The notes: a model not told the origin generated them from the sequence alone. A stretch of DNA of 64,000 bases from Candidatus Peribacteria bacterium (GCA_023245935.1 JAHFJM010000004.1:13924-77923), one strand, 5' to 3'; counted from the stretch's first letter, positions 15,710-55,830 are shown. Program-made: numbers and translations.

Positions 15710-16480
15710 ATGGCAACAAAAGAACAACAGCAGAACGTATGGTTCGGTCTCTCGATGTTCCTCGGCGGCATGATCGTCGGCGTCATCCTCGTTGGTGCAA
15801 GCGGCATCAGCCCTTTCGGAAAAGGTCAGCCTGCTCCGAGCGGTCAGCCTTCGCCGACGGCACCGAATGCTCCGGAAGCTCCGACGGCAAATCTTCAGGA
15901 CACCATTCTCGGATTTGCACGCACAGTCGGTCTCGATGAGGCAAAGTTCACCGGTTGTCTCGCGGCAGACAAGTTCAAGCAGATGTTCACAGATGAGGAG
16001 GCGGCAGGTCAGACGGCCGGAGTGAACGGCACACCCGGAAATATTCTGATCGACATGAAGACCGGCAATGCCAGACTGCTCTCCGGCGCGCAGCCGTTCG
16101 AGGTCTTCCAGAAGAACATCGACGAAATGCTCAAGAATCCGACGGCGAAGAGCACGGATCCAGCAACCCCTCAGGCGACGAATGTCGTTCCGGTCGATCT
16201 CGAGAAAGATCACGTCCGAGGCTCCAAAACGGCACGTCTGGCACTGATCGAATACTCCGACTACCAGTGTCCGTTCTGTCACCGTGTTCACCCGACATTG
16301 GAGCAAATGATGCAGAAGTATGACGGAAAAGTTGTTTGGGTCTACAGACACTTCCCTCTCAGTTTCCATCCGAATGCAATTCCTCTCGCAACAGCTGCCG
16401 AGTGCGCGAATGAAATTGGCGGAACGGATGCGTTCTGGAGTTTCACTGATGAGGTCATGGCGAGTGATAATGTAAATTGA
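15710..16480 (+). CDS. DsbA-family thioredoxin-fold thiol:disulfide oxidoreductase, membrane-anchored
   Basis: An N-terminal TM and a Pro/Ala linker precede the CPFC active site (YSDYQCPFCHRVHP) and a DsbA-like C-terminal part. ATG is at 15710. Confidence 0.8.
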   Translation: MATKEQQQNVWFGLSMFLGGMIVGVILVGASGISPFGKGQPAPSGQPSPTAPNAPEAPTANLQDTILGFARTVGLDEAKFTGCLAADKFKQMFTDEEAAGQTAGVNGTPGNILIDMKTGNARLLSGAQPFEVFQKNIDEMLKNPTAKSTDPATPQATNVVPVDLEKDHVRGSKTARLALIEYSDYQCPFCHRVHPTLEQMMQKYDGKVVWVYRHFPLSFHPNAIPLATAAECANEIGGTDAFWSFTDEVMASDNVN

Positions 16481-17827: not shown

Positions 17828-18892
17828 ATGAAGAAATTTTCCACTCTCCTTTTCGTCTTCTCGACAGTGCTTTTTGCGGCGTGTTCACCCGCGTCTCCTG
17901 GCAGTAGCAGCACAGTGCAGACCGGTTCCGGCAGCACTTCCGCTTCGGAAGCCGAGAGCGGCAGTACGATGGTCACGGTGACCAGCAACGTCAGTTACGT
18001 TGGAACGGTGACGGAGCTTGGTGTGTCCGCTGCCATGCAGGGCACTCATAAACTTCTCCTCGCCGACGGGCAATTCATTCTGCTCGAATCGACCGATGCA
18101 AACCTCAACCTGGATACCTATCTCGGAAAGCAGGTGGAAGTGCGAGGAAGCGTTTCACCGACGGTGGAAGGCAACGGTGGAATCATGAGAGTCGAGGAAG
18201 TGACGATTCTCGAGGCCTTCTCCGGGAGTGAGGCGCAGACGACCTCTTCGTCATCGAAATCAGCAACCATTTTCTGCGGAGGCATTGCAGGGATCGCTTG
18301 CCCATCAGGAATGTCATGCGTCGACAATCCGGACGACAGTTGCGATCCTGAGAATGGAGGAGCGGACTGCGGTGGAATATGTGTTCATGCAATGATGCCG
18401 GCATCATCCAAGACATCTTCCGCTTCCTCGAAAGCTTCTGTCGAGCCGACTCAATCTTCCTCGCTCTCGAGTGCTCAAGACGCATTGTCTGCATCACTGG
18501 AAGCTGCAATCGTGCTCATGGCGAAGCAAAAAAATGATGACGCCCTCTGGACGCAGAAGTACTGCACGGGTCACAGCGCATTCTGCATTGCAGCACACAA
18601 GAATTGGTACTTCAAATCGTTCGGAGCGACGACATCCAATCTCTGGCATGTCGAATTCGGCATGTCGCCGATTGAGGACCTCCACACGGGACCGATCGTC
18701 CTCAATCTTGTGACCGGCACGAGCGCATCGATGAACGCGAAAGACGGAGAAATTCGCTCGGAAGGCAGTGACGTCATCGGCTTCAAAGATTGGACCGGCG
18801 GCACGCACTTTGAATTGATTGCCGATGCAAGGCTGAAGGATGCCGTCCAAATCATGCTTCGTTCCATCTCTTCCTACACTCCTGCGGAGTAA
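17828..18892 (+). CDS. Lipoprotein, function unknown, with an internal Cys-rich motif
   Basis: MKKFSTLLFVFSTVLFAAC is a signal peptide plus lipobox, followed by a Ser-rich linker. The motif CGGIAGIACPSGMSCVDNPDDSCDPENGGADCGGIC lies at nt 18275-18382. Confidence 0.6.
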   Translation: MKKFSTLLFVFSTVLFAACSPASPGSSSTVQTGSGSTSASEAESGSTMVTVTSNVSYVGTVTELGVSAAMQGTHKLLLADGQFILLESTDANLNLDTYLGKQVEVRGSVSPTVEGNGGIMRVEEVTILEAFSGSEAQTTSSSSKSATIFCGGIAGIACPSGMSCVDNPDDSCDPENGGADCGGICVHAMMPASSKTSSASSKASVEPTQSSSLSSAQDALSASLEAAIVLMAKQKNDDALWTQKYCTGHSAFCIAAHKNWYFKSFGATTSNLWHVEFGMSPIEDLHTGPIVLNLVTGTSASMNAKDGEIRSEGSDVIGFKDWTGGTHFELIADARLKDAVQIMLRSISSYTPAE

Positions 18893-24833: not shown

Positions 24834-24910
24834 TGGTGCTCCCGGCAGGACTCGAACCTGCGACCAACAGGTTAGAAACCTGCTGCTCTATCCACCTGAG
24901 CTACGGGAGC
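24834..24910 (-). tRNA. tRNA-Arg, anticodon UCU (CCA encoded)
   Basis: The reverse complement is GCTCCCGTAGCTCAGGTGGATAGAGCAGCAGGTTTCTAACCTGTTGGTCGCAGGTTCGAGTCCTGCCGGGAGCACCA. The anticodon loop is TT-TCT-AA. Confidence 0.9.
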
Positions 24911-24932: not shown

Positions 24933-27900
24933 TTACGAACGTCTCAGGAATCTCCTCCTCGCAAGCCCAATGCCGGCTGCTGCGCCGGTGACGATGAAGA
25001 TCACCATACCCGGACCTTCCTGTGACCGCGCTGGAGTCGGAACTTTCGTCACTTGATCGAAAGCATCTGCAGAGCTTCGGACCCCTTGCGGAGGAATCAG
25101 CGTTCCGACAACCGGAGACGCGGGATGCACCGCTCTCCTGCAGGCGTGATCGCACCCGTCACCGTCGAACGTGTCTCCGGTGTCACACTCCTCATTCACC
25201 GCGACGACTCCGTCGCCGCAGTACGGCAGCTGGCAATTGTCGAGACACCGCGTCGATGCATAGTTCCCGTTGTTGATCCCCGTGTCGCACTGCTCGTACG
25301 GTGAATCGATGACGCCATTGCCGCATTGCGGAACCCTCACCACTCGGCAGAGTACCGTGCAATGCGAAGAAGGCTGACCGTTGAGAGGTCCATCGTCACA
25401 CTGCTCACCGGATCCGCTGTTGATTTGTCCGTCACCGCAGGTACCGTTTTCGACCTTGCATTGCGCGCTGCAACCGTCTCCATCGATGGCATTCGAATCA
25501 TCACACTCTTCTCCCGCATCGATTGCTCCGTTGCCGCAAGTGGTGACCGTCAGGATCTGACAGGTAGTCGTGCAGTTCTGATTGATTTGTCCGTTGAGAG
25601 AGCCAAGATCACATTTCTCCCCCGCTTGCTGTATTCCATCACCGCAGTAGGCAATACTCGAAGCAGGGTACTGATTCTCGCTGGAAGATTGCTGGAAATT
25701 TTGCGAAGGATTTGAGGGGAAACTCGCGATAAATTGACTCGAGCTCGAGGTATCTTTCAAGCTTTGGCAGCACACCTCCGACTGCGAACAATTGCCGAGG
25801 GTCTGAGAGTACGGACACTCCTGGAAGGGAACGCAGGAAGAACCCGTGGGGCAGGTCAGATCACTTGAACTGCTTGAACTCGAGGAGGAATCGAGAGAAC
25901 TTGAGGAGCTCGGCACGGCACCCTGGCAACACACTCCGGTATCCGAACAGGCACCGACTGTGCTCTCCGGCGTGCATTCGTAATAGTTGACGCAAGCGGA
26001 ACCGCCCGGGCAGACGGAATCCGGAACACTCGATGATGAGGACTGCGATCCGCACACCGCGGGACAGGACACTCTCGAATCCCAACATGACCAGCTGCCA
26101 TCCGGACAACAAATCGCTTTATCTTCGCATGCAGGCTTGTTTCCAATGCTGCAGGCTGGAGAGAGAGAACTGGAACTTGAGCTCGAATTTTCACTGCTCG
26201 AAGAAGAACTTGAGGACGAACTGCTGAACGAGGAAGAAGAGGAGCTGCTCACACTGTTGACACTTGAACTGGATGAAGAACTCGAGGAGGGAACAATGGG
26301 AGGGAAGGTGGACGTGCTGTTGCAGGTGTACACCATTGCTCTCGACAGGGAAACGAATCGTACGCAGCCCTGTCCGCAGCTCACCGGCGTGGTTGCCCAG
26401 TGAATGTACTCGGGGAAAGAAACAGACGTATCCTGGCAGAGCGGTTCAGAGGGCGAAGCAGTCATTGCGATCGCATCAATATATTCCTGCCTGTCTTTGT
26501 CCGTGAGATCGGCCGGATCGAAGGAGTAATAGTCGGGATAGTAGGTGCTGTTATAACCGCCCAGTGACGTACTGCTGCGCGTGCATGTGCCCGAAATCGC
26601 AAAGGGACTGATCGAATACTGAACGCCCTGCCATGTGCAGATGTGATCCGGTCCATCCATCGAAACAGGCTGCCATCCGATTTTTGGGAGAGCCTGTGCA
26701 GTGCAGACAAACGGATTCACGTGTCTGCACGCAATGTCGGGGCTCTTGCATGTAGTCGCAAATCCTCTTCCTCCAAGAGACACGAATCTGGCACAGTTTG
26801 GTCCGCAGCTCACAGGCGCAGTCGCCCAGCTGACATCGTGATTGAATGAGACAACGGAACCCGAGCAGGCCGGGGGGGAGCTTTGAACAACATTGAGAAT
26901 CAGATTTTTCATTTGAGTTCTGTCCGGATCCGTCGCATCATTTTTGGCGAAGCTCATGAAATCGGGAACCGTGGGAGGCGTACATGTGCCTGCTTCTTGA
27001 AAGGGATTGAGTGTGAAACGTTTTCCAGTCGCAGTACAAGCGGCATTCGGTCCGTCCATCGAGACAAAATCAACATTGTGCGTGCTTTCGCGGATGCACC
27101 CGATCGGATCGATGGCGGTGCAGGACGACGTGATGTCGCCTCTCAGGATCGATGATCCTCCCGAAATGGCATCTGTGAAACTCCTGATCAAACCGGTCAC
27201 CCAATGCCACACGCCGCTGCCACCGGTTGAAACGGACGAGTTGGAAGTTCCCGGTATCAAGGACCCGAGAAGATTTCCTCCAAGCGTCGAGCTGCTTGCA
27301 CTGTCAACGGCAATTCCATTCACGGCAGGATCCCAGCACATCCAACTGCCGTCGCCGCAGCAGTATGCGTACGCATCGCCGGTGCAGACCGGGGCAACGC
27401 CCTGACATCCTGCGCCGTCGATGAATGAAGATGACGAAGAGGAACTTGAAACACTCGATGTGTTTTGGCAGCAGACTCCGGTCTCCGAACAGACATCAAT
27501 GGTTTGTTCCGGCGTGCATTCGAAGAAGTCGACGCAGGAAGAGTCTTCGGGGCAAGCAGATTGCTCACTGGAAGAAATGCTGCTCTCGCTTGAAGCGCTT
27601 GAACCGTTGTTGCAACAAACGCTGTCGAATGAGCAGGCATCACCGGTATTGTCGGGAGTGCAATCAAAGAAATACTTGCAGGAAGATCCGGACGGACAAC
27701 TGCTGCTCGTGACGCTTGAAGACAAGCTGCTTGTATTGGAACTGACCGACGAACGGGAAGAAACTGCGGAACTTGCGAGTGAAGAACTCGCACTGAATCC
27801 TGAGCTTGCAGAACCGGAACGACTGCTGCTCACACTCGAGCCGGCAGAGAAACTGGAAGAAACCGAAGAACTTGAAACGCTTGATGTGTTTTGGCAGCAG

Positions 27901-30900
27901 ACTTCGAGCGACGAACACTCGCCCACCGTGTGATCCTGATCACAATCGAAGAAGTAGACGCAGGAAGAATCAGCGGGACACCCCGCACTGCTTGAACTAT
28001 TCGAACTCATGCTGCTCTGTGATCGTGAGGATACGACAGAAGATTTCGAGGAACCAACGGAGCTTTGCACGGAGCTCGTAGAAAGGCTGGATCCCGCAGA
28101 ACCGGAACGAGAACTGGAAACGCTCGATGATGTGTTTTGGCAGCAGACTTCCAGTTGAGAACATGCGCCAAGGGTCTGTTCGGGATTACAATCGAAGAAA
28201 TATTTGCAGGAAGAATCGGACGGGCATGCTTCGCTGCTCGAACTCATGCTGTTCTGTGATTGTGAAGAGACAACCGAAGATACCGAACCGGCGGAGCGAC
28301 TGGATCCGGCAGAACCGGAACGGGAGCTGCTTGAATTGGATCTGATCGAAGAAATGGAAGAAACAGAGGAATTCGATGATCCTCCACCGGAGCAAGTACC
28401 GGGACACTGAAGTGTCAGATCCTGACAGGACCAAGTGCCGTCCGGACAGCAGAAGAGCGTGTTTTGGCACTGCGGCTTCGTTGCATCGGAACAGAAGCCT
28501 GCATCAGAACTTGAGGATAGGGAGGAAGAATTTCCGGAAGAAGAATTGTTGGAGGAAGAAGAACTCTTCAAAGACGAACGCGAACTGCTGCGAGAACGGG
28601 GAGAGCTTGAGGAAGAGCAGTACGTAAACCCGGCGACTGCAGCACGGAAGTCACGAGACAGAGCATCCTTGTCTGCAGCGTACCGTGCGTCCAAAGCAGA
28701 GAGCCCGGCTTGGATCTCCGTAGGCACACGTGTTTTGGGATCGATCCCCCTGGCCTGCCAGTAACCGACATCGACTTTGTACAGAACATACACGCTGTTG
28801 ATCGTACTGTTATAGGCAGTGTCCAATGCTGTGCGAATGGTTCCATAGTCCTTCGTCATCGCGACGATTGAGACGCACGCATTCGGAAACGTATAATGCT
28901 CGACCGGACAATTCGCGGGGAATGCGCCAATTGCGGTAAGAAAGTCGCGAGAGAGAGCGGCTGTATCCTGAGCATACTTTCCATCCACAGCAACAAGCAC
29001 CGTCTGAACATCCGCAGGCAAACGTGTTTTGGGATCGATCCCCCTGGCCTGCCAGTAGCCGACATCGATTTTGTACAGAACATACACGCTGTTGATCGTA
29101 CTGTTATACGTATCAGTCAGTGTTTTTTTCGCAGCGGCAAAGTCAGTGATCGAATCGATAACGGGTACACACTCGGTCGGAGGAGGGGGAGGCGGAGGGC
29201 AACTGCTCGATGGGAAGGCGGCAACCGCGGCACGGAAGTCACGATTGAGAGCCGCTGTATCTGCAGTGTACCTTGTGCTGAGAGCCGCAAGAGCAGTCTT
29301 GATCTCTGCGGGCAGAAAGAATTCCGGATTGTTGCGATTCTGAACGCCGTAGGTGGCATAGATGGAATTTGCATTCGTGCTGTACGCATTTGAGAGCGTT
29401 TTCGTTTCTGCGTTGTATTCCTCAGTCATCGCAACAACGGACACGCATGAATTCGTAAACGTATAGCTCTCCACGGGACAATTCGTCGGGAATGCGCCGA
29501 TAGCTGCAAGAAAGTTGCGAGAGAGAGCAGCTGTATCTGCGGCGTACTTCTTATCCATCGCATCGAGCGAAGCCTTGACCTCTGCGCTCAGAAAGAATCT
29601 TGGATTGTCGCGGTTTTGAACACCGTAAATGGCGTACACATTGTAGATTGCGGTGTTGTAGGTACTGGCAAGCGTTTTGCTTGCTGCAGCGTAGCTGGCG
29701 ACTGAGCTTGCGATAGGAACGCACTCGGTTGGCGGAGGGGGAACAGGACAGTCTCCGGGAAGCGTGGCGAGTGCAGCGTTCAAATCATGAGAGAGCGCAT
29801 CCTTATCCGCAGCGTACTTGCTGTCCACGGCGGCGAGTGCTGCATCGACCTCTGCACCGATGAAGATTCTTGGAACATGGTCTGCGTACGTCGCAGGATT
29901 ATAAGGATGGTAGATGGCATACAATTGCAGAATCGAATTGCGGTATGCAGTGTCCATCGCTTTGCGCTTTTCAGCGTAGACACGCATCATGTCGACCGCC
30001 GACACTCCGCATGTATCTGGGAACACAGTGCTTTGTGTGGGACAATTCAGAGGAAACGCAGCGAGGGCTGCAAACAAGTCATTGGAGAGAGCAGCCGTAT
30101 CTGCGGCGTACTTCCCGTCCAACACCGCGAGGATGGCATCGACCTCTGCACTGATGAAGATTCTTGGAACATGGTCTGCGTACGTCGCAGGATTATAAGG
30201 ATGGTAGATGGCATACAATTGCAGAATCGAATTGCGGTATGCAGTGTCCATCGCTTTGCGTTTCGCACCGTACTCACTCATCGAATCGACAACTTGCACG
30301 CAAGTATTCTGCGGAGAAGCGACTCCTCCCGTGAGATCTCCTTTCAAGGTGTCACCCGCTCCATTGAAGATGCTTCCAAAGAAATGCAGAACGCTTTTGC
30401 CAAGATCGATGATCCACTGCATCAGGCCTGAACCGGACTGATTCGATGCGAGCGCTGTTTTGTGACCTCCGAAGAGCAAGTTCCCTCCTAGGATTGATCC
30501 CCCACCGGGAGCCTCGTCGACGATGAGACCGTTCACCGAAGGATCGAAACACATCCAATTTCCGTTGCCGCAGCAATATGCATACGAATTGCCGGAACAC
30601 ACGGGCTCTGCGTCGCCGCACCCGGTAATGCTGGAGCTGAGGCTGCTGGCCGAAGAACAAGACTCCGGACCGCAGGAGATCACGCAACCATTCGCACCGA
30701 AAACCATCGAGGAAAAAGTACATCCGGGTCCCGGGTCGCAGACGAGACATGAGGAAGATTTCGAAGAACTGGACACCTTCGAATTGTTGCTATTCGCTGA
30801 CGAAGATGAACTGGACGGAGGATCGGTACAATCCCGATTCAATGAATTCCGCGCCGTGATGTAGTTTCGATGCAAGGCATCCAGATTGGCTAGGTAGGTA

Positions 30901-33900
30901 TTGTACAGAGAAGTGCGTGAAGTTGCGTAGTCTCTGTCCAGAGCCGCACGGGCAGCAGTGAAGGTGCGATACAAAGCGTCGTTTGAGGCGGCGAAAGTTC
31001 GGTCCAGGGTATCGCGGGCGGCGGTATAGTCACGAGTGATGATCGAGCGAGAGCTTTGATAGCTTTTCTCCAAGGTGGCGCTCGATGCGAGGTACGTGTT
31101 TTTGAGCGTCGCGAGAGTGTTTTGGTAGATCGTGAGCCTCGAAGCGGCAGTCGAGGTGACATAGGTCTGGTACGCTGCATTGATCGCATCGATGTAGTTG
31201 GTTTCCAGCGTATTCCTTGACGTTTGGTACGTACTCAGAAGAGCATTGAGCGACGCAGTGTTCTTGGTCTCGAGGGCATTGCGCGCCGCCTCGTGCGACG
31301 AAAGCAATGCATTGCGATCGGTATTGTATTTGGCGAGCAAAGCGTTTCCGGACGTTTCGTACGCAGTCGTCGCATCATCCCTGGACGCATTGTACTTGGC
31401 GTCGAGGGCGGCAACCGCTGCAGCATAGTTTCGGTCGAGGGCAGCGAATTGATCGCTACAATCACCAGGCTCGGAGCTTGCGGAAGAGCGGGAAGAAGAG
31501 AGTGAGGACGAGGACGAAGGACAAGGCAACGCCTGGAAAACTCCGTCGCAGTAATATCCGTCCTCTTGGCTCGAAGAGGAGGAAGAACCGGAAGAGACGG
31601 GCTGGCATGAAGCGAATGCGCAGTTCGGTCCCGTGCGAGCGACGTAACTGCCATCGGGACACTGCAAGACATCGAGCTCACATACCTGCGGTCGGCTGCT
31701 TGAGAGAGAGGAAGCGGAGGAGAACGACGAAGGCGCTGACGAAGAGAGCGAAGAAGAGGAAGGCTCCGGAATGCACTGCAAGTTAAGTTCTGCGAGTGCA
31801 GTATTGTAATTACGGTCAAGCACCGAGCGTGTGGCAGTGTATGACGACCGCAAGGCATCATACGAGAGTGCATACTCGTTTTTAGCGCGAACGCGTGAAA
31901 TCTGATACTCACGGTTTAAAGTGCTCAGCGCCGTTTGCCATTCAATGCGCGCGTCATCGAAGACACTATTGACCCAATGGGTACCTAGCTGGCTCGAATA
32001 CGCGTAGTATCCATGGTACTTTTTGTAGAGTGCATTCGTTGATACAGAGTACTCATTCTGGATGCGAGCAAGCGTTTCATCGTACGTCTTCTTCCCATCC
32101 CTCAGCGCAGCCTGGTACTCGCTATCGAGTTGAGCACCCTTCGCCTCGTAGGTTTTCGTGAGTGCCCTCGACGACACAATGTTCTTGCTTTCCAGCTGAC
32201 TGCGAATCGAGGCGTAGATACCGTTCAATTTCCGTACCAAATCATTGTACTGCCAGACTAAAGTCTGACTCTCTGATTGATACTGAATACCAAGAGCATG
32301 CTGAGCATCGGAGTATTTCCTTTCCAAAGCATAGAGCAAATTACCATACTTCGTTTTGAGCTTATTTCGATCAGAGCTGTACTTGTAACCGAGTTGCCGG
32401 ATCGTGTAGGCATTGCCATCCGAAGCATCGAGGGAAGCAAGGTAGCTCGCCGTCAGTGCGTCAAACTCCGTTTTGTACTGCGCATTGAAGGAATCACGCG
32501 AGGCAGTGTACTGCTCGTAGAGCGTGATGAGCGATGCGGCAAGCTGACTGTCCATGGCATCTCTGGAAGCGACAAAGTTGCTGTCCAGCTTTGCAAGCTC
32601 CGCTGCTTGTTTGCTCTCCATCGCAGCGAGTGCGTCGTCGTAGGGACGTTTCAAAGCGGCGAGCGCTGCTTGGTACTCCTTCTCCAATGCAGCAGCGGAA
32701 GCAAGGTAATTTTTGTAGAGATTCGCCTTCCATGTCGCAAAATCCCCGAGGGAAGCAATCGCAGTATTGTAGGCACTGCGCAACGCTGCACTCGCAGCAG
32801 TGTATTCGACCTGCAACGCCGCAACCTTGGCTTTGTACCTATCGTATAAAGCTGTTCTTGCGATGGGGTAATCCCGATCGAGAATTGCAAGCGAGGTGTT
32901 GTAGTCACGGAGAAGATTGGCAAAGAGCACTGCGTATTTTGCGTCCAGTGCGGCAATCGCTGCCGTGTAATCGCGCAGTAACGCAGCGCGCAGAGCATCG
33001 CATTCTTCTTTCGTATAGTGCGAACTGCTGGAGCTTGAAGATCGCACAGAACTTGCAGAGCTTGAGGAAGCAACAGAGCAGGTAACATCGGCTATGCATG
33101 CTCCGGCAGCGCACACACCGGAGCCGCACGCTGTCGGATCGATGGCTGTGCACTTCGTTCCTTCGTTCACATAGCAACTGCCGCCATTCAAATAGGATCC
33201 CTGCGGACACTGCCCATTGATTGCGCTGACCGTGCAGCTGACGACCGGGGAGGCCGATGAAGACGTGAGAAAATTCGCACATCCTCTGGCATCGTACGTG
33301 CAGTACTGACCGACTTTGCAGCAGTGAACCGGACCACCCGTGCAGGTGATTTGATCGAAGGCACACGCCTGCGGTGCACACTTGCCACCTGAGCAGTTAT
33401 TGCTACAGCAGCCCGGAGTCATCGGCGTCACGAAGCCGTCGTTCATACAGCATGGACCGGCAATTGCAGGACAGGCAGCTCCGTCCTGCAAGCAAAGACC
33501 GGCACAGAGCGGGACTCCTGTCGGACAGATTCGACTGGATGAAGAAGAGAAGGTTAACCCGCATGCTGCAGTACAGGCTCCAAGAGTGTCAAACACCGGC
33601 TGCCCGGAACAGAGCGAGGAATTCGACTGCTGCATGCAAGTGGGAGGAGCGTGCTGCAGGTGATCGCAGCAGTACACGGATTGAGTCGGCGTAATGACAG
33701 GTCCGCAGAGTGTGACGTTGCTTGCCAAGGCGGTTGCACAATTCTGCGTCGCAAAGTACGTGCCTGACTTCACCGCGCATGCCGACGACGTGATAAGTTC
33801 ACATGCATGTGCGGAGCAACATGCAGAGAGCGGACAGTCTGCATGACAGGAGTCATTGGTTTCTCCGGCATCGCAAATTCCATTCTGGTTGCATGTGGTG

Positions 33901-34208
33901 GACAACGGACATTCAGCCGGGCAGAGAGCATTCGTCTCTCCGGGTTCGCAGATGCCATTCATATTGCATGCTGTTCCGCCCGTACCGCATCCCTGTCCTG
34001 CGCAATCGGAACAGCCGCTCGTGCACTCCTGTGCCGAATCGCAGACACCGTTTAAGTTGCATGTAATACTGCATCCGGGCGTTCCGACGATACAGCCCTT
34101 CAGTTTTGAAGGATTCCGCAACACATTCGATTGCAGAAGAACGATCGTCATCACGAGCCCGAGAAGCGCACCGATCAGAAGCCTCAGGGGGAACTTTATT
34201 GGCATCAT
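24933..34208 (-). CDS. Giant (3,091 aa) Cys-rich, Ser-tract-rich modular cell-surface protein with N-terminal signal/anchor and C-terminal TM + Arg-rich tail
   Basis: This is a single uninterrupted ORF with the N-terminus [25 protein letters not shown]. It has internally repeated modules (see the repeat features) and myxo-type Cys repeats. The C-terminus is [27 protein letters not shown]. All other-frame ORFs inside it are low-complexity shadows. Confidence 0.85.
   Translation of the reverse strand: [3091 protein letters not shown]
25137..25646 (-). repeat. Five myxo-type cysteine-rich repeats (CG[DN]G...E.CD.G..N......C...C), aa 2855-3024 of the giant protein
   Basis: An example is [27 protein letters not shown]. 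This is the pattern of the Myxococcus cysteine-rich repeat (myxo_disulf_rpt / DUF4215-like). Confidence 0.75.
25767..26012 (-). repeat. 6-Cys knot modules K5-K6 (aa 2733-2814)
   Basis: The modules are [29 protein letters not shown] and [29 protein letters not shown], with spacing C-x5-C-x5-C-x8-C-x5-CC. Confidence 0.8.
27468..28226 (-). repeat. 6-Cys knot modules K1-K4 separated by Ser-rich linkers (aa 1995-2247)
   Basis: The modules are [87 protein letters not shown] and [29 protein letters not shown]. Confidence 0.85.
28617..30302 (-). repeat. Six tandem ~95-98-aa repeats (aa 1303-1864) arranged as three pairs
   Basis: Each unit starts with C(V/G)..(V/A) and ends with ..FP..CP. Pair R1/R2 shares a 125-nt DNA block (29842-29966 vs 30136-30260, 1 mismatch). 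Pair R5/R6 shares an 87-nt block (28728-28814 vs 29022-29108, 2 mismatches). Both blocks are offset by exactly 294 nt. Confidence 0.85.
30828..31460 (-). repeat. Hendecad (11-residue) Tyr/Ala repeat region B (aa 917-1127)
   Basis: Aromatic residues lie at 928, 939, 950, 961, (972 H), 994, 1005, 1016, then 1028, 1039, 1050, 1061, 1072, 1083, 1094, 1105 and 1116. Confidence 0.8.
31773..33011 (-). repeat. Hendecad (11-residue) Tyr/Ala repeat region A (aa 400-812)
   Basis: Tyr lies at 414, 425, 436, 447, 458, 469 and 480, then at 501, 512 and 523. F545, L556, Y567, Y578 and Y589 follow. Y621 to Y731 are spaced by 11 with one gap, and Y768, 779, 790 and 801 complete the series. The motif is roughly (L)D..Y..A..AL. 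Confidence 0.85.
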
Positions 34209-34286
34209 GGAAGTCGATGCTGATTATGTCTTATCCGTGAGGAAGCTACAAGCAATTACGACTGCACGCTTCACTATGAAATCTCC

Positions 34287-35615
34287 CTATGGCCTGCAGC
34301 AAACTGTCGGTCCAAAATTGCCGGGTGCGCATGCACCTGCAGTCTGCTTCGAGCTCGGACACATCGCGGTGACTCTGCATGCATTCGGGGAACTGCATGG
34401 CGGAACACAACACACCTTGCCGCCGGTACATGAGTCATTGGTCCTCCTCGCTATGGGACACGATGCACTTGTTGCGCATGCATTCGGAGAAGCGCACGCC
34501 GTCACCGGGTCACAACACACCTTATTGGTACCGGAACATGCCCCTGTTGTGCGGCTCAAGGCCGGACAGAGCATAGTCGTTAGACATGTATTCGGAGACT
34601 GACATGTCGGAGCGCGACAGCAGACCAACTGCGGACTGCTGGTGGGACAGGCAACTCCCGGCATCCGTCTTGATACTGGACAGGAGGCAGGATTTTTACA
34701 TGAATCGGGGAGACCGCATGATGTACAGCAAATCGTGCCTGTGGGACATGCGCCACCCGTCTGGTGTGACAACGGACATTGGCTCGTCGGTGAACATAAA
34801 TTACCGGAGGCACATGCTGCTGAAGCAGAAGAGGAAGGATTGGATGATTGCTGAGAAGAAGGCGATGAACTGCGTCTGGAAGATCTTGAGGAAGAACGTC
34901 TGGAGGACCGAATGGAGGAATTGGCACTGGAACCTCCTCCACCCCCCCCTCCACTACTACTGGAACTTATGGAAGACTGTCCGGAGGAATTGGCACTGGA
35001 ACCTCCCGAACCTCCACTGCCTGAAGAACCGCTGGAGCCACCGGAACCCGCACTGCCGGAGGAACCAGTGGAACCGCTGGAGCCACCGGAGCCGCCTGAG
35101 CTGGAAAAGGCAGGACATAATGGATCGGGGAGAGTAACCATAACGCATAAATTGAAAAAAAGGTCACACGTGCAGTGCCCCATTCCTCCTGCAGGTTGGC
35201 AACCATTGTTACAGATCTGCATATTGCTCACTTGTCCAATGCATGATGCATCTGGATTTGGAGCGGTATTGCAGCCAGAACTTGAAGATGTGCTCATGCT
35301 TGAGGAATTTGAGCTGGCAGATGCACCGCCACACACTCCCGGATGTGCAGTCTGTGCTGCTGCACACGTTAATTCCCCTGGGAAGAAATTTCCCAGTGCG
35401 GTCGTACAAGCAGTCGGGGTCATTACACCGATACAGTGAGGTGTTGGCACCGTGGAACAACAGGCAGCGGTCGGGGGAGTGAGTGCCATTCCCTTCACAT
35501 CACTATTCACTCTAAACCAGAGCTGCATCGCAAGAACAATCACCAACAGAACTGCAGGAACAACGATGGCTGTGAAACCAATGATATTGGAGGAGAACTT
35601 CTTGGGATGCTTCAT
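34287..35615 (-). CDS. N-anchored Cys-rich surface protein (442 aa) with Gly/Ser tract and five 6-Cys knot modules
   Basis: The N-terminus is MKHPKKFSSNIIGFTAIVVPAVLLVIVLAM. The GS/S tract spans aa 171-266. Five C-x5-C-x5-CP-x8/9-C-x5-8-CC modules span aa 268-440 (nt 34296-34814). Confidence 0.75.
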   Translation of the reverse strand: MKHPKKFSSNIIGFTAIVVPAVLLVIVLAMQLWFRVNSDVKGMALTPPTAACCSTVPTPHCIGVMTPTACTTALGNFFPGELTCAAAQTAHPGVCGGASASSNSSSMSTSSSSGCNTAPNPDASCIGQVSNMQICNNGCQPAGGMGHCTCDLFFNLCVMVTLPDPLCPAFSSSGGSGGSSGSTGSSGSAGSGGSSGSSGSGGSGGSSANSSGQSSISSSSSGGGGGGGSSANSSIRSSRRSSSRSSRRSSSPSSQQSSNPSSSASAACASGNLCSPTSQCPLSHQTGGACPTGTICCTSCGLPDSCKNPASCPVSRRMPGVACPTSSPQLVCCRAPTCQSPNTCLTTMLCPALSRTTGACSGTNKVCCDPVTACASPNACATSASCPIARRTNDSCTGGKVCCVPPCSSPNACRVTAMCPSSKQTAGACAPGNFGPTVCCRP

Positions 35616-35638
35616 AGAATTGTTTGAATCCTACTGAC

Positions 35639-37267
35639 CTATTCTGCTCTGCACAACTTGCTGCAACCGTCACCGGATTTCGTGTTCTTATCGTCACACT
35701 GCTCACCGGTATCGATCGTCCCATTGCCGCAGACTGCCGCATGAAGACCGCGGAGCGTGGTGAGGAGGAGAATCAAGTCCTTCCGATCCACGGCACCGTC
35801 ATTATTCAGGTCATTTCTGAGATTTTTGATTTTCATGTCCTGGAACATCATCGTGATTCCCCTGTACATCTCGCTGTTGCTTAGCACACCGCTTCGATCG
35901 ACGTCGAGAGCGGTCAGAATACGAGCGACTAAGGGAGCGATTGGAGCTACGACGAGCGGAGGAGGCAACGCTACTGCAGTGCAAAGGGGAAGAAGTGGTG
36001 ACGGAGCCTTGCACAACCAAGGGAACGGCGGCGGTCCCGGTGGTGGGTGGAGAGGGCAATTACCGAAATGATGCGGACAGTAGTAGTACGCCTCAAGTAC
36101 GCCATGATCCCCGGCAATAATGCCCGCGTCCGGTCCATCGCATTTAATGTACTTTGCCGGTGTCTCGTTGACGCCAATGCACGTGCCCGGTCCTCCGCAT
36201 GTGTTTTCACAAAGTGTCTTAAAGCTGTTCATGTAGGGACCAAGAATAGCGCAGTCGATGGTGATCGGTGGCGTGTTACCCGGTGGAAGTGGAGTCGTAG
36301 GTGGGGGAACTTGTGGCGGATAGCCGGGATAGCCGAGTGCGACCGTGCACCTCTTTTGCATACAATTTGCACTGCAGCCGTCTTGGACAACGGCACACGC
36401 TCCTGTACCGGGGCAGTCTGCAGCGACGCTGCACTGCTTCCCTAAATCCGGAGGACCATTCGGACAATGCTTTCCATTGTCACAGACTTCCGGTGCAGTG
36501 ACGATTCCGTCTCCACAAGCGACGGTGCAGACACTGGTGGAAGTAGCGAGTGGAAGATTTTCACAAGACCAACCGTTCTGAATATTGCAGGCTGCAGTAC
36601 ACCCGTCTCCATTCGTGTTGTTGCCGTCGTCACAGGCTTCATCGTCTCCGCCACCCGGAGCATTGTCTTGGCCATTGGCATCTCTGTATCCGTCTCCGCA
36701 TGATTCGGTTTTGCAAATGTTACTGCAGCCATCTCCGGAAACGGTATTCCCGTCGTCACACTCCTCCGGAGCCACTGTGGCATTGTCTCCACAGGAGCCA
36801 ATCGGTACGCATGTAGTGCCAACGCAGACAGTAACTCCCGGGTTACACATCGGTGGAGTGCAAGCAGACACGCACGTTCCTGATAAGCACGTTCCACAAC
36901 AAGGAGGCTTTTCGGTGGAAGGCATTGGTCCGACGCAGCAAGCGGTCGTCGCTCCCGGAGAAAGGCAGCTGGTGCTACCGTCAGGTCTGCACGTTGAGGC
37001 ATTTCCACACGTGGGAATCGTGACGTCGGGACACGGTCCAAGGAAAGTGCATATTGCAGGAGAACCAAGACACACCGCCGGCGCAATGCAATTCGATGTG
37101 TTGCAAGCGAACACGCATCCTGTAGATGGACAAACAATGCCTCTCAGAGACGTTGTATTTGAGAAGAGCGATGACTTGATGATAAGAACAACCACCAAAA
37201 GAACGGTCGGAACTACGAGAGCTGTGACACGGATAGCAGTGGATGAGTGCTTCGAGAAATGCTTCAT
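35639..37267 (-). CDS. N-anchored Cys-rich surface protein (542 aa) with myxo-type Cys repeats and a dockerin-like EF-hand pair
   Basis: The N-terminus MKHFSKHSSTAIRVTALVVPTVLLVVVLII is paralogous to the neighbour. The repeats CGDNATVAPEECDDGNTVSGDGCSNIC, ACDDGNNTNGDGCTAAC and CGNGTIDTGEQCDDKNTKSGDGCSKLC are present. The loops DVDRSGVLSNSE and DLNNDGAVDRKD lie at aa 455-497. Confidence 0.75.
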   Translation of the reverse strand: MKHFSKHSSTAIRVTALVVPTVLLVVVLIIKSSLFSNTTSLRGIVCPSTGCVFACNTSNCIAPAVCLGSPAICTFLGPCPDVTIPTCGNASTCRPDGSTSCLSPGATTACCVGPMPSTEKPPCCGTCLSGTCVSACTPPMCNPGVTVCVGTTCVPIGSCGDNATVAPEECDDGNTVSGDGCSNICKTESCGDGYRDANGQDNAPGGGDDEACDDGNNTNGDGCTAACNIQNGWSCENLPLATSTSVCTVACGDGIVTAPEVCDNGKHCPNGPPDLGKQCSVAADCPGTGACAVVQDGCSANCMQKRCTVALGYPGYPPQVPPPTTPLPPGNTPPITIDCAILGPYMNSFKTLCENTCGGPGTCIGVNETPAKYIKCDGPDAGIIAGDHGVLEAYYYCPHHFGNCPLHPPPGPPPFPWLCKAPSPLLPLCTAVALPPPLVVAPIAPLVARILTALDVDRSGVLSNSEMYRGITMMFQDMKIKNLRNDLNNDGAVDRKDLILLLTTLRGLHAAVCGNGTIDTGEQCDDKNTKSGDGCSKLCRAE

Positions 37268-37362
37268 ACAATTATCTTCATCCTAAAGGTTGCGCACTTC
37301 CTGAAGCAATACGATCTTCTCAGAATTTGGTTTTTGGAATTTTTCGTCTTACACTGCCGTCC

Positions 37363-38883
37363 ATGATCAGAAAAAGCACATCAGACGAGAAAAAAAAACC
37401 GTCCCACGTGTGGCTGTATGCGTTGTTCGTCCTCGTGACGTCGTTCTTCACGTACATGTACCGCTACGACTTCCCGCCGAATCCTTTCTGGGATGAGCCG
37501 TACCACATCGTCTCCGCTCAGAAGTACCTGAACGGAGTCTTCTTCATGGAGCAGCATCCTCCGCTTGGGAAACTGTTCATCGCTCTGGGAGAAAAGATCG
37601 TGCACGGAAATGCACGGAACGATCAGTTCCTGACGACCGACTACGCAAACAATATTCCGAACGGTTTCAACTTCGCGGGATACCGACTCTTCCCGACACT
37701 GTTCGCGTGGCTCACTGCACCAGTGCTCTTCTTCATCTTTCTCTTCATCACGGGAAGCAGTCCCCTCTCCGCACTCCTTTCTTTCCTCTACGTCTTCGAC
37801 AATGCAGAGATCGTCCACAGCCGCGGCGCGATGGTGGACAGCACACTGACGTTCTTCGGAATGCTCTGCGTGCTGCTCTTCCTCCATCTCCAGCGAAGAG
37901 AAAGGAAGGTCACGCTGAAGAAGCATTGCATTCTCTCGCTTCTCCTCGGCGTATCGTTCGGGCTTGCAATGGCGACGAAAGTCATCGCACTCATCTTCAT
38001 CCTGCTCTTCCCGCTGATCATCCTGCGCCTGCTCCCCGATTGGAGAAAAGTCACGCTCTTCTGTGTTCTCAGCATGGTAGGAATGATGACAATGTACGTC
38101 AGTGTCTGGCAGATTCACTTCTCACTCGGGAAGAGAGTCGTGCCCGAACTCCCCGATAACGGGTATTACCAGGCATCGAGCGAGCTGAAGACGATTCTCA
38201 GTTCGCATGCGCAGAACACATTGTCGTCATTCCCCGTGATGCTTCGCGATCACCTGCTGTTCGCACCGCACTACAACAGAGGAGTGCCGCGTCTCGACCT
38301 GTGCAAGAAAGATGAGAACGGAAGCCCCTCGTACTTCTGGCCGTTCGGGGCACGGTCGATCAACTATCGCTGGCAACAGGAGAATGAGAATGCGTATCGC
38401 TATCTCTACCTCGTGAGCAATCCCGTCGCATGGGGGCTTGGGCTGCTTGGCATTTTATTGACTGCCGTTCTTCTGATCGGCTCACAACTTTTCACAGTCA
38501 AAGAAAAACTGCAGCAGCCGTTTCTGCTTCTGTCGTTTTTTGGCATCTACTGCTCATACATGATTGCAATCAGCCGCATCACGCGTGTGATGTACCTCTA
38601 CCACTATTTCCTGCCTCTCCTGTTCAGCTTCATTCTGTTTTCGCTCGTCCTCATCAATATCCGAACCATCGGACGGTACAGAGTCACCGATGATCGGCGC
38701 ATCGTCTTCATGACGATTCTCGGTCTTCTGATCTTCGGTGCATTCCAATTCATGAGGCCGCTCACCTATTACGAGCCGCTGACCGACAGTGCATTCAAGA
38801 AACGAGCAATCGTGACCATGTGGGAATTGACCTGTGTCCGTTGCCAGAAACTCAGTTGGCTTGTGGTGCCGACCGGGAATTAG
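37363..38883 (+). CDS. Dolichyl/polyprenyl-phosphate-mannose protein O-mannosyltransferase (GT39, PMT family)
   Basis: The loop-1 DE motif (FWDEPYHIVSAQKYL), the HPPLGK motif and about 10 TM helices are present. The start is set at the ATG at 37363 (MIRKSTSDEKKKPSHVWLY...). The gene is divergent from the 542-aa gene across a 95-nt spacer. Confidence 0.8.
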   Translation: MIRKSTSDEKKKPSHVWLYALFVLVTSFFTYMYRYDFPPNPFWDEPYHIVSAQKYLNGVFFMEQHPPLGKLFIALGEKIVHGNARNDQFLTTDYANNIPNGFNFAGYRLFPTLFAWLTAPVLFFIFLFITGSSPLSALLSFLYVFDNAEIVHSRGAMVDSTLTFFGMLCVLLFLHLQRRERKVTLKKHCILSLLLGVSFGLAMATKVIALIFILLFPLIILRLLPDWRKVTLFCVLSMVGMMTMYVSVWQIHFSLGKRVVPELPDNGYYQASSELKTILSSHAQNTLSSFPVMLRDHLLFAPHYNRGVPRLDLCKKDENGSPSYFWPFGARSINYRWQQENENAYRYLYLVSNPVAWGLGLLGILLTAVLLIGSQLFTVKEKLQQPFLLLSFFGIYCSYMIAISRITRVMYLYHYFLPLLFSFILFSLVLINIRTIGRYRVTDDRRIVFMTILGLLIFGAFQFMRPLTYYEPLTDSAFKKRAIVTMWELTCVRCQKLSWLVVPTGN

Positions 38884-38958
38884 ATATCTGCCTTACGTAT
38901 TCCGGATTTTGTGTGTAGACTCTGCCCGCTTTTTTCTCTCACCTTCCCACTCACCATC

Positions 38959-40380
38959 ATGCGTTTCACCAAAATCGTCGCGACCATCGGTCCTGTGACA
39001 TCGTCAGTCGAAAAAATCGAGCAGCTTGCAAAAGCCGGTGTCAATGTTTGCCGTCTGAATTTTTCTCACGGCAGCTATGAAGTGCACGGACAGACGATGG
39101 AGAACATCAAAACAGTCAACAAGAAGGGATACTCGCTTGCGATCATGCTCGACACCAAAGGACCGGAGATTCGTACGGGAGACGTCACGCAGGCGATTGT
39201 CATCAAGAGAGGCGACAGGGTGATCTTCACGTCGAAGGCAACAGGCAAGGAGAAGCTCACGACCATCACGGTGGATTATCCGAAATTTGCGGAAGACGTG
39301 AAGAACGCGAGGTGCATTCTCATCGACAACGGTTCCATCGAATTCAGCGTCGAGAGCATCGAGAAGGGAGGCATCGTCATCGCGAAAGCGCTTGAAGATG
39401 GAAAGATCGGTTCCAGGAGACACGTCAATCTTCCCGGCGCCGATGTCAGTCTGCCGTCGTTCACACCGAAAGACTGGGCGGATATCAGCTTCGGCGTGAA
39501 GCACGGCGTGGACTTCTATGCGACGTCGTTCGTGCGCACCGGAAAGGACATTCGTACGCTCAAAGCATTTCTTTTGAAACACAAAAGTGATGGCGAGATC
39601 ATTGCGAAGATCGAGACGCCGCAGGCAGTCGACAACATCGACGCAATCATCGATGCGGCAGACGGTGTGATGGTTGCACGCGGCGACCTCGGAGCCGAGG
39701 TACCGTTTGAGGATGTTCCGAAGATACAGGAAATGATCGTTGCGAAATGCCGCTTGAACGGAAAGCCGGTCATCGTTGCCACGCACATGCTCGAGAGCAT
39801 GATCCTCTCGCCGATGCCCACGCGCGCCGAAGTCACGGACATCGCATTCGCAGCGATGCTCCAGACCGATTCCACCATGCTTTCAGGTGAAACGACGACG
39901 GGTCTCTATCCCTTCAAAGCGGTCTCTGCCATGGATCGGGTGCTGAAAGTCAGCGAACGAATCGAACACGGAGACATGGCCTCATCGATGCTTCGAAAAA
40001 CGGAGAACATCGCAAACAACATGCCGAGGCAAGAACAGGCAGTTGCTGCGAGCGTGCTGGCAACCAAACTGAAAGCTGACATCATCCTCGTCATCAGCAA
40101 GCACGGACATACGGCGATGGCCGTGAGCAACTGTCGCCCGCTCGTCCCCATTCATGCGTTCGTCGAGACCGAGAGCAGGCAGAGAAAACTGATGCTCGTC
40201 TGGGGCATCACCCCTCACACGATCCGGTTCTCTGAAAAACCGGAGGACACTCTCGATCGTGCACTTGCGTTCCTCGACAAGAACAAGCTCGTCAAGAAGG
40301 GACAGAGAGTGGTCGTTGTCTCCGACATTCGAACCGGAATGACTCCGGTGATGACGATTCAGATACGAACCATCAACTAG
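38959..40380 (+). CDS. pyk: Pyruvate kinase
   Basis: MRFTKIVATIGP, NVCRLNFSHGS, MVARGDLGAEV and the C-terminal regulatory domain are present. ATG is at 38959. Confidence 0.95.
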   Translation: MRFTKIVATIGPVTSSVEKIEQLAKAGVNVCRLNFSHGSYEVHGQTMENIKTVNKKGYSLAIMLDTKGPEIRTGDVTQAIVIKRGDRVIFTSKATGKEKLTTITVDYPKFAEDVKNARCILIDNGSIEFSVESIEKGGIVIAKALEDGKIGSRRHVNLPGADVSLPSFTPKDWADISFGVKHGVDFYATSFVRTGKDIRTLKAFLLKHKSDGEIIAKIETPQAVDNIDAIIDAADGVMVARGDLGAEVPFEDVPKIQEMIVAKCRLNGKPVIVATHMLESMILSPMPTRAEVTDIAFAAMLQTDSTMLSGETTTGLYPFKAVSAMDRVLKVSERIEHGDMASSMLRKTENIANNMPRQEQAVAASVLATKLKADIILVISKHGHTAMAVSNCRPLVPIHAFVETESRQRKLMLVWGITPHTIRFSEKPEDTLDRALAFLDKNKLVKKGQRVVVVSDIRTGMTPVMTIQIRTIN

Positions 40381-40739
40381 TGCGCTTCCGCAACCGACAG
40401 ATCCGCCTGAACGTACTTCGGCTTTGTCGGTTTCTGCATGAGTTGAATCTGCGGATCGTTCTGGAGTGATACGAGTGCATTGGACTTGGCAATCTGCATG
40501 TTCACCACTTCCTGCTCAAGGAGGAGATCCGAGCGTGCACGCTCGAGAGTACGAAGCTTGTAGCCCTTCGTCGCATTCATGTTGTGATGAAAGAGAATGA
40601 GCAGCGCAAGCACGACGATCAGCGTTCCGATCACCGACAGCAAGAGAGCCGTGCTGCTCGACATCATGCGACCAAGCGAATGGCGACGCTGCACGGAGAG
40701 CGCAGACGGCAAAGACGGAAATGACACAAGGTTCAGCAT
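40377..40739 (-). CDS. FtsL-like cell division protein (single TM + coiled coil)
   Basis: It lies immediately downstream of and overlapping rsmH, in the conserved mraW-ftsL position. The TM is ALLLSVIGTLIVVLALLILF, followed by a heptad-like segment. The exact start is uncertain. Confidence 0.5.
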   Translation of the reverse strand: MLNLVSFPSLPSALSVQRRHSLGRMMSSSTALLLSVIGTLIVVLALLILFHHNMNATKGYKLRTLERARSDLLLEQEVVNMQIAKSNALVSLQNDPQIQLMQKPTKPKYVQADLSVAEAH

Positions 40740-41674
40740 GACGCGGTGCGATGGTCAGTATACTCGGTTCGTTTCGCGATTGCACGCAGTCTCGCTGATC
40801 TCGATCGAGGATTTTTCTGAATTTCCTGTTCGCTCGCAGCGATAGGCTTCCGCGTGAGCAGTACAAATTCAGATTTCTTCGAGATCGATCCTGTGAGTAA
40901 GTCCTTCTCATCTGCAGCGAGAGATCGGAATGCTGTCTTCACGAGCGTATCTTCAATCGAATGATAGGCGATCACCGCACAGCGTCCTCCGGGAGCAAGG
41001 AGGAACGGAATCGCTGCAAGCAAGTTTCCGAGTGCTTCGCGTTCACGATTCACCGCCATGCGAAGTGCCTGAAATAACTGCGGCAGCATCTGAGGCGATT
41101 TGTACCCGTACACGACCTTCGCTGCATCCGTGAGATCCGAGCTCGACCGAATAGGATTCTCCGTACGCCTTGCAACAATCTCCGTGACCAATGGACGAAC
41201 TTTCGGCAACTCTCCAAATTCCCAGAATATTTTTCTCAGCTTCTCCTCATCGAGCGATGCAAGGAGCATCGCAGCGGTCATGCCGGAGCTGCGATCGAAT
41301 CGCATATCGAGCGGCGCATCGGTTCGAAACGTAAAACCGCGTGTGGGATCGTCGATGTGCGGAGAACTGAGTCCAAGATCGGCGAGGATGATATCGAATT
41401 GTCGCTGATCTTCCGGCAAACAATTCGGCAGCTCGCTGAAATTGGAATGGAGAATCGTCACTCGTGAACCGAATTTTTTGAGATTTTCTTTTGCAATCGC
41501 AATATTTTCCATATCAGCATCGAGTGCAACGAGCGACCCTGCTTTTCCTGCTGCTTCGAGCAATGCCTCGCTGTGTCCTCCGAGCCCGAGTGTGACATCG
41601 AGAATGCGATCACCTGCTTGCGGAGACAGAATCTCGAGAGTTTCTTTGAGGAGTACTGGAATATGCTGCTGCAC
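40733..41674 (-). CDS. rsmH: 16S rRNA (cytosine1402-N4)-methyltransferase RsmH/MraW
   Basis: HIPVLLKETLE, DVTLGLGGHSEALL, DLGLSSPHIDDPTRGF and SIEDTLVK are present. Confidence 0.95.
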   Translation of the reverse strand: MQQHIPVLLKETLEILSPQAGDRILDVTLGLGGHSEALLEAAGKAGSLVALDADMENIAIAKENLKKFGSRVTILHSNFSELPNCLPEDQRQFDIILADLGLSSPHIDDPTRGFTFRTDAPLDMRFDRSSGMTAAMLLASLDEEKLRKIFWEFGELPKVRPLVTEIVARRTENPIRSSSDLTDAAKVVYGYKSPQMLPQLFQALRMAVNREREALGNLLAAIPFLLAPGGRCAVIAYHSIEDTLVKTAFRSLAADEKDLLTGSISKKSEFVLLTRKPIAASEQEIQKNPRSRSARLRAIAKRTEYTDHRTASC

Positions 41675-41761
41675 GACGGAAGTCTATCCTCACTCCGTCC
41701 TGCGGGACACCTCTCTCCGCTGCGGCGAAGACAGGAATGTCCGTACTCAGAGAAGCTCGAG

Positions 41762-55827: not shown

Positions 55828-55830
55828 ACA

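Follow-up and report, generated by a model that had tools for sequence, protein, structure and literature searches.

What is encoded by three consecutive Cys-rich genes that stand back to back with a gene for a protein O-mannosyltransferase (PMT), and is the enzyme tied to their products by more than position? These genes lie in a 64,000-nt stretch of DNA from a Candidatus Peribacteria bacterium (the window; coordinates are positions in its whole length), which PMT homologues place in the Candidatus Peribacteria/Peregrinibacteria, a lineage of the candidate phyla radiation (CPR). The reading we favour, at a probability of roughly 0.55, is that the 3091-aa product of the largest gene (the giant) is an elongated, disulfide-rich and probably O-glycosylated surface protein with type I anchoring and mucin-like Ser tracts, accompanied by two exported accessory proteins of 442 and 542 aa; the three would be the local version of a clade-specific, fast-diversifying slot, likely supplying a variable coat or attachment molecule. 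The comparison drew on 10-kb contexts of PMT orthologues and on 80 species-level loci from GTDB genomes; P and L numbers (L002, L006, P0127, P0146, etc.) label the related proteins, loci and contigs used.

The giant and its two companions

The three minus-strand open reading frames (ORFs; Table 1) are separated by gaps of 78 nt (giant/442-aa gene) and 23 nt (442-aa/542-aa gene), as a preliminary description of this DNA had reported. It had also seen in each product a basic segment followed by a hydrophobic N-terminal anchor, extreme Cys richness, and Ser or Gly/Ser tracts in the giant and the 442-aa protein, all of which hold: hydropathy and translations give a hydrophobic 17-mer (mean Kyte-Doolittle 2.5-3.1) after K/R/H residues at all three N-termini, Cys makes up 5.7% of the giant, 10.0% of the 442-aa protein and 9.6% of the 542-aa protein, and Ser amounts to 17% of the giant and 19.9% of the 442-aa protein, both with long Ser or Gly/Ser tracts. 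Its reading of these products as exported or anchored, disulfide-rich, Ser-tract proteins is supported. Housekeeping genes flank the locus, with SpoU, GATase, RRF, pyrH, a 167-aa membrane protein and tRNA-Arg on one side and pyruvate kinase (PK), RsmH and GT4 on the other. Searches of PHROGs and PADLOC gave zero matches, and a phage-fibre or defence reading was therefore not taken.

Table 1. Positions, strands and distinguishing marks of the features discussed.
Feature	Position	Strand	Remarks
Giant, 3091 aa, 'L family' member	24933..34208	-	Leader, variable Cys/Ser-rich modules, myxo repeats, predicted C-terminal anchor
Giant leader, aa 1-48	34065..34208	-	Basic residues, Gly-rich hydrophobic helix, L-K-G motif
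N-terminal Cys-rich region, aa 38-380, three CNxNGxC..GE..C..DC modules	33069..34097	-	
Hendecad helical repeat region 1, A-L-x-x-x-Y, aa 398-808	31785..33017	-	Tyr autocorrelation 0.50/0.37/0.26 at lags 11/22/33
Hendecad helical repeat region 2, aa 908-1128	30825..31487	-	Tyr autocorrelation 0.55/0.36 at lags 11/22; BLAST similarity to region 1
Six tandem Cys-bracketed modules, aa 1303-1864	28617..30302	-	Self-BLAST 33-82% identity; predicted helical hairpins
Ser tracts, four 6-Cys knots and small CC..W.C modules, aa 1865-2270	27399..28616	-	
Orphan module, two copies of ~135 aa, 8 Cys, aa 2356-2634	26307..27143	-	Copies 40% identical
Ser tracts and two 6-Cys knots, aa 2629-2830	25719..26324	-	
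Five myxo_disulf/DUF4215 repeats, aa 2855-3023, membrane-proximal	25140..25646	-	TIGR02232 E 4.1e-17
Conserved C-terminal tail, aa 3050-3091	24936..25061	-	VPTPA-x5-GPG, hydrophobic helix, RRRFLRRS
442-aa protein	34287..35615	-	MKH-type leader, Gly/Ser tract, five tandem 6-Cys modules
542-aa protein	35639..37267	-	MKH-type leader, Cys-rich region, 3-4 DUF4215 repeats, Pro-rich/Cys core, EF-hand pair
Paired EF-hand Ca2+-binding loops, 542-aa protein aa 455-512	35732..35905	-	EF-hand_1 profile
GT39 protein O-mannosyltransferase, bacterial type, no MIR domain	37363..38883	+	Divergently transcribed; Pfam PMT and PMT_4TMC
tRNA-Arg(TCT)	24834..24910	-	Left edge of variable slot; adjoins PMT directly in empty-slot L006
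Membrane-anchored DsbA-like thiol oxidoreductase, CPFC	15710..16480	+	Thioredoxin_4 E 2.5e-18

By its sequence the giant falls into a narrow family, here defined as the L family, whose members combine a conserved leader, Ser-rich tracts (19-30% Ser across the family), three to five membrane-proximal myxo repeats and a C-terminal tail consisting of IPTPARTPTGPG, a hydrophobic helix and RRR. A hidden Markov model (HMM) built from ~30 leaders of S/L proteins of other species recognised the giant (E 1.5e-8) and, when all ORFs of the window were scanned, matched the giant alone (E 6e-7); with 17% Ser, five repeats and the tail, the giant carries the whole set of family features. The 542-aa and 442-aa proteins are not matched by this HMM and have an MKH-type leader of their own. 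The tail pattern occurred 19 times in the 80 PMT loci and the window, always beside PMT, either in the slot upstream of it or, in L014/L016, between PMT and PK. An exhaustive search of 1.84e9 representative proteins returned the tail in 24 clusters, and in all 15 that were retrieved the myxo repeats directly precede it; these repeats are kept across L-family members. The tail would therefore be the conserved anchor of one family, and the idea of a general, promiscuous sorting signal was dropped, the retrieved matches being confined to a single architecture. None of LPXTG, PEP-CTERM, PGF-CTERM, GlyGly-CTERM and MYXO-CTERM is matched by the tail, there is no LPXTG in the giant sequence, and three tails compared with the NCBIfam CTERM/anchor models (E<=10) yielded only a chance-level 13-bit match to PExPT-CTERM (cut-off 40).

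Between leader and tail the giant is a mosaic. Its DUF4215/TIGR02232 membership (five copies, 61.7 bits against a cut-off of 20.8) bears out the CGxG-type myxo repeats noticed earlier here and in the 542-aa protein, and a regular expression finds six copies of the 6-Cys framework at strict spacing. The 11-residue periodicity extends over ~630 aa. The six Cys-bracketed modules measure ~82-88 aa each, with a repeat period of ~95 aa including linkers, and an AF2 model of two of them (predicted local distance difference test, pLDDT, 78.8; predicted template-modelling score 0.69) shows two ~30-residue helices in each, i.e. hairpins; despite this confident model, Foldseek found nothing in the PDB at E<0.7. 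Periodicity and model together support a stalk-like character for the long helical segments. Searches of PDB sequences with the giant and with the 542-aa protein gave zero matches, as did a word-indexed search of 5.8e9 proteins with the orphan 8-Cys module.

A further module recurs in the giant (aa 1280-1300 and 2345-2367) and in its L003/L004 homologues, in which a CC..W.C.DP knot is followed by a stretch rich in Gly, by an amphipathic helix and finally by S/T-L-[RK]-G-D. Its end echoes, with weak HMM support, the family-wide L-[RK]-G motif after the leader, and might be a processing site. An origin of the giant by gene fusion is unsupported because the leader HMM barely scores the internal 'LRGD' segments (i-E 0.05-1).

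It is hardly credible that the giant ORF arose by chimeric assembly of repeats or represents a pseudogene. Its internal repeats are genuine, and the contig of an independent Logan assembly of short reads ends inside a 209-bp repeat; yet this repeat, the longest within the gene, matches its partner at only 88% identity, long identical repeats are absent, and up to that point the two assemblies agree at 100% identity (window 30231-41715). The frame is open across 9276 nt, GC content is uniform, and both termini agree with those of orthologues. The latter, L003/L009 (1452 aa) and L004/L010 (>2437 aa), keep both ends around a middle rebuilt from shuffled cassettes. The doubt raised on this point with the preliminary description thus met no obvious chimera, and the exact 3091-aa protein is already present, without a name, in public collections.

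The giant homologues in L004 (1-7400; ENA k141_1401059) and L003 (4100-7300) are uncalled in the source annotation, where about nine Glu/Leu-rich ORFs on the opposite strand are antisense artefacts of Ser-tract coding sequence. Giant genes with Ser tracts are probably under-counted in annotations of CPR metagenome-assembled genomes, and users should be warned that gene callers split them into spurious antisense ORFs.

The two smaller proteins had been described as paralogous. Their detectable homology is confined to residues 1-61 (E 2e-7), and they therefore share a leader but not a body. The 542-aa protein is a strong DUF4215/TIGR02232 member (109.9 bits, cut-off 20.8; E 3.7e-32); among 5.8e9 proteins its only full-length homologues were P0146 (79% identity) and P0147 (48%), the other matches being DUF4215 repeats of Myxococcota and others, and PMT-adjacent genes in L003 and L004 are also homologous to it. 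The 442-aa protein has zero Pfam or NCBIfam matches, so that it is not a member of DUF4215/TIGR02232, and has a 398-aa relative in L002. The 6-Cys knots counted in the preliminary description, five in the 442-aa protein and six in the giant, are all there (in the former four match the regular expression and a fifth has a longer last loop), but the knot HMM from the giant scores only ~4 bits on the 442-aa protein; we accordingly rejected homology of the knots, which have the Cys framework alone in common.

The same description envisaged a fibre with accessory subunits, one of them bearing a dockerin-like Ca2+ module. Read as a fibre of several subunits, with the accessory proteins attached to the giant by a Ca2+ module of the dockerin-cohesin type, this model is in our view quite improbable. 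The 'dockerin-like' module is present as a pair of EF-hands with two canonical 12-residue loops, DVDRSGVLSNSE and DLNNDGAVDRKD (EF-hand_1, 25.8 bits against a cut-off of 25.4 with the module scanned alone, below threshold in the whole protein). A pair with a dockerin-like second loop recurs in the L004 homologue and in the L002 homologue of the 442-aa protein, which together with three co-oriented genes at short gaps may hint at docking of the dockerin type. Dockerin_1 itself, however, gave only 14.6 bits for the 542-aa module and 14.6-18.3 across the scanned modules, all below the 22.9 cut-off; neither a cohesin nor another partner domain was detected in the giant, no locus protein matched cohesin, and the EF-hand module is missing from the L003 orthologue of the 542-aa protein and from typical family members of other species. 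Nor does anything point to a polymerised fibre, since no pilin, sortase or LPXTG features were found in the locus.

The slot beside the O-mannosyltransferase gene

The enzyme next door is securely assigned, matching Pfam PMT (PF02366, 115.6 bits, cut-off 22.7, E 3.7e-33), PMT_4TMC (PF16192, 57.4 bits, cut-off 32.4, E 1.8e-15) and yeast Pmt2 (E 5.7e-14). Its start at ATG 37363, 95 nt from the 542-aa gene, is backed by the lengths of homologues (497-509 aa) and by an independent gene call (506 aa), although the ORF could open at 37243. A GT39 enzyme with DE and HPPLGK motifs on the opposite strand at this distance had been recognised before, and among 1217 homologues found, the DE motif (FWDEPYH; D44, E45) and HPPLGK are invariant in the 24 compared. 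It had also been called divergent, which it is not within its clade, being 50-90% identical to >100 Peribacteria proteins. No Ppm-type GT2 lies within the 64-kb window; GT2 genes stand beside PMT in clade B relatives (see below). In actinobacteria and fungi, Ser/Thr-rich segments receive O-linked mannose from GT39 enzymes while passing through Sec. We know of no CPR PMT for which a substrate has been demonstrated, and a literature search found no paper tying CPR bacteria to protein O-mannosylation.

The PMT loci fall into two PMT clades, A and B. Clade A (26 species including that of the window) has the backbone RRF-pyrH-p167-tRNA-Arg-[slot]-PMT-PK-RsmH-GT4, and in 18 of the 20 loci with enough upstream sequence leader-bearing Ser/Cys-rich genes lie directly upstream of PMT. 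Typically the slot holds a pair of genes, one for a small protein of 160-220 aa ending in a CCN..C motif and one for a large protein of 480-960 aa with 19-30% Ser, three to five myxo repeats and the conserved tail (IPTPARTPTGPGLVIFLASGAAAGVG..RRR); across the family, L-protein length ranges from 482 to 3091 aa. Three to four such pairs stand in tandem in L027 and L031, and L014 (11577-14617) and L016 have a second pair between PMT and pyruvate kinase, so that PMT is flanked on both sides. While the backbone is conserved around the slot, the interiors of slot genes are reshuffled; in comparisons with the nearest relatives, identity is 61-93% for backbone proteins, 33-51% for the 542-aa protein and 56-59% for the conserved C-terminus of the giant. 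The best reading of this synteny is that a variable slot has adjoined PMT for as long as clade A has existed. A genomic island at tRNA-Arg was considered and rejected, given that no integrase was found, GC is uniform and the slot is old within the clade.

Several observations weigh against the favoured reading. PMT is a core gene in all Peribacteria, and in clade B, which includes Candidatus Peribacter riflensis, it stands beside FtsH and GT2 without Cys-rich neighbours. One clade-A species (L006/L083) has an empty slot of 472 nt in which tRNA-Arg abuts PMT, and in L002/L008 unrelated genes intervene. L-family genes are found between RNase Y and EF-Tu in L092 and next to an ABC transporter on the P0127 contig, in both cases with no PMT, and likewise without PMT in L088. 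The whole region is syntenic, and adjacency to PMT may therefore be merely inherited. A scan of the locus for promoters and terminators gave counts equal to the shuffled expectation. Searches of Pfam, NCBIfam and PDB sequences found no recognisable binding, lectin or adhesin domain, and AF2 gave no usable model of the orphan 8-Cys module (pLDDT only 37.6). Finally, were the leader to stay uncleaved, the giant would be tethered at both ends.

The neighbourhood of PMT in relatives, proposed earlier as a check, is thus kept in most informative clade-A species but absent in L006/L083, and family members also occur far from PMT. Because PMT is a core gene, the slot can be empty and relatives of the giant lie elsewhere, adjacency is suggestive and no proof of a dedicated cassette; on the gene order, a link between PMT and the Cys-rich genes is plausible, not established. 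It is quite possible, if not what we favour, that the linkage is positional only, the tRNA-Arg/PMT slot being a hot spot for variable surface genes and PMT a housekeeping enzyme with many substrates. The Ser tracts could then be glycosylated by another enzyme, for instance the Wzy_C/TPR protein encoded at 58657-60600 in the window, whose family includes PglL-type O-oligosaccharyltransferases. The backbone persists with or without an insert, PMT is highly conserved across Peribacteria and has other neighbours in clade B, and L-family genes are found elsewhere, all as expected of a hot spot. Chance position accounts less well for a slot that is filled in 18/20 clade-A species despite complete turnover of its content, for the second pair on the other side of PMT in L014 and L016, and for a divergent arrangement with only 95 nt between genes. 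Moreover, three of six tail-anchored loci lie in the PMT slot or backbone (PMT upstream in L094 and L095, the RRF-side backbone downstream in L093), against a random expectation of ~2% (<10 kb, 1.2-Mb genome).

A stronger version of the favoured reading, which we put forward as doubtful, would make the clade-specific S+L pair and the adjacent GT39 a dedicated cassette for mucin-like, O-mannosylated, type I-anchored glycoproteins, with leader and tail recognised by a processing or assembly partner. If true, this would extend PMT-substrate modules for the first time beyond Actinobacteria and eukaryotes, and its products would be the chief variable structure by which these episymbiont-like cells make contact with their hosts.

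Possible function and likeness to known systems

Under the reading we favour, the N-terminal leader would take the giant through Sec, and the C-terminal hydrophobic helix with its RRR tail would hold it in the cytoplasmic membrane, the five Ca2+-type acidic Cys repeats (DUF4215) being positioned beside the membrane. Farther out, Ser tracts, hendecad helices and disulfide-stapled hairpins would form an extended stalk bearing interchangeable Cys-knotted and orphan globular modules. A DsbA-like enzyme would presumably form the disulfides extracellularly. For the neighbouring PMT, the obvious acceptors are the Ser tracts; we infer that it may glycosylate them, and by analogy with mucin-like proteins O-mannosylation might stiffen or protect them. 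The 442-aa and 542-aa proteins, with their common leader and shared orientation, would be accessory surface proteins, and the EF-hand pair of the latter could mediate Ca2+-dependent binding. An adhesive role is conceivable, and the whole may serve as a variable cell-surface coat or attachment molecule of a host-dependent, ultra-small bacterium. CPR bacteria depend on other cells, and to our knowledge their contact molecules are almost unknown.

A purely structural envelope or glycocalyx layer (an S-layer-like coat or spacer), varying so as to evade phages or predators rather than to adhere, is unlikely. An anchor close to the membrane, stalk-like segments of great length and Ser tracts resembling those of mucins would suit such a layer, as would fast divergence, cassette shuffling and the lack of a recognisable lectin or adhesin domain in profile and PDB sequence searches. 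Lattice-forming S-layer proteins, on the other hand, are unlike a product present in single copy per genome region and varying from 482 to 3091 aa, and a coat sits poorly with the empty slot of L006.

The preliminary description did not recognise the locus as a described system, but proteins of this kind are already on record. According to Anantharaman et al. (2016; PMC4736985), the extracellular proteins encoded by Peribacteria include large ones that are very rich in Cys (>5%), have a signal peptide, are weakly similar to Myxococcus Cys-repeat proteins and vary between strains by indels; the authors proposed a role in attachment and also listed multiple mannosyltransferase annotations. The locus is thus a real, fast-evolving member of a protein class noted in 2016 and not a new kind of system. 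The giant matches the Cys-rich proteins of Candidatus Peribacter riflensis in large size, Cys content, signal peptide, similarity to Myxococcus repeats and strain variability; the paper does not define a family and describes neither an anchor nor a leader nor a linkage to PMT. P. riflensis belongs to PMT clade B (FtsH/GT2 neighbours), whereas the leader-and-tail family was seen only in clade-A type contexts.

DUF4215 repeats also occur in a diatom adhesive-trail protein (bioRxiv 10.1101/2023.03.06.531300). Myxococcota proteins with DUF4215/myxo_disulf_rpt, often bearing MYXO-CTERM, have the same acidic Cys repeat before a C-terminal hydrophobic anchor and basic tail; the giant differs in a tail that matches neither MYXO-CTERM nor any other NCBIfam CTERM, in its family-specific Ser tracts and leader, and in its host, a CPR bacterium without an outer membrane. 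The Gram-positive Ser-rich repeat adhesins Fap1, GspB and SraP have a long, glycosylated Ser-rich stalk, distal binding modules and a C-terminal anchor; they are glycosylated in the cytoplasm by GtfA/B, exported by SecA2/Y2 and anchored through LPXTG by sortase. The likeness lies in the very long, Ser-rich, C-terminally anchored stalk, but the candidate enzyme here is an extracytoplasmic GT39, and a Pfam survey of the window ORFs revealed no SecA2/SecY2/Gtf accessory genes and no LPXTG.

PMT-dependent proteins include actinobacterial lipoglycoproteins and, in fungi, mucins and sensors of the Wsc1/Mid2 type; the fungal proteins have a type I topology, in which a head rich in Cys is followed by a Ser/Thr rod bearing O-linked mannose, one transmembrane segment and a short tail. 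A GT39 with the DE motif is common to these systems and ours; the tracts here are almost pure Ser, and the protein is 10-fold larger and modular. Tetrabrachion has a stalk made of a hendecad right-handed coiled coil, and in the giant, too, a strict hydrophobic period of 11 residues runs through hundreds of residues. The likeness is one of periodicity, and the signature residue of the giant is Tyr.

What the locus offers is a concrete, sequence-defined family (leader, Ser tracts, DUF4215, anchor) at a fixed genomic address beside PMT. It opens the way to tests, in metagenomes, metatranscriptomes and heterologous systems, of strain-level surface variation, of protein O-mannosylation in CPR bacteria and of the role of the widespread DUF4215 repeat.

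Other genes in the window

The DsbA-like oxidoreductase pointed out earlier is there, and is a candidate disulfide catalyst acting in trans; a DSBA gene is also found in the syntenic backbone of L006. In the window protein the order of the DSBA profile is swapped, profile positions 122-190 aligning to residues 63-137 and Thioredoxin_4 positions 3-88 (the CPFC part) to residues 165-251, which could reflect a circular permutation or partial duplication.

Two further membrane proteins had been taken for GT-C-type enzymes, which we could not confirm. That at 12458-14356 (minus strand), 632 aa long and polytopic in the membrane, carries a WDD motif close to its N-terminus and has a C-terminal array of TPRs; its architecture resembles TMTC-type O-mannosyltransferases, and its membrane part has no Pfam match. 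The other, at 58657-60600 (minus strand), is a Wzy_C membrane protein (O-antigen ligase/PglL-type family) with a TPR tail, and possibly an alternative enzyme for protein O-glycosylation.

Surface proteins are probably encoded at two more sites: 17831-18892 (plus strand), a probable lipoprotein (LFAAC lipobox) with Ser tracts, a small Cys-rich module and no family match, and 51824-53899 (minus strand), a 691-aa protein with three PKD domains. Adjacent genes for LemA and a TPM-domain protein at 54961-56481 (minus strand) form a common membrane-associated duo unrelated to the locus. At 329-405 (minus strand) lies a tRNA-Ile with anticodon TAT (UAU), which is unusual in that bacteria mostly read AUA with a lysidine-modified CAT tRNA.

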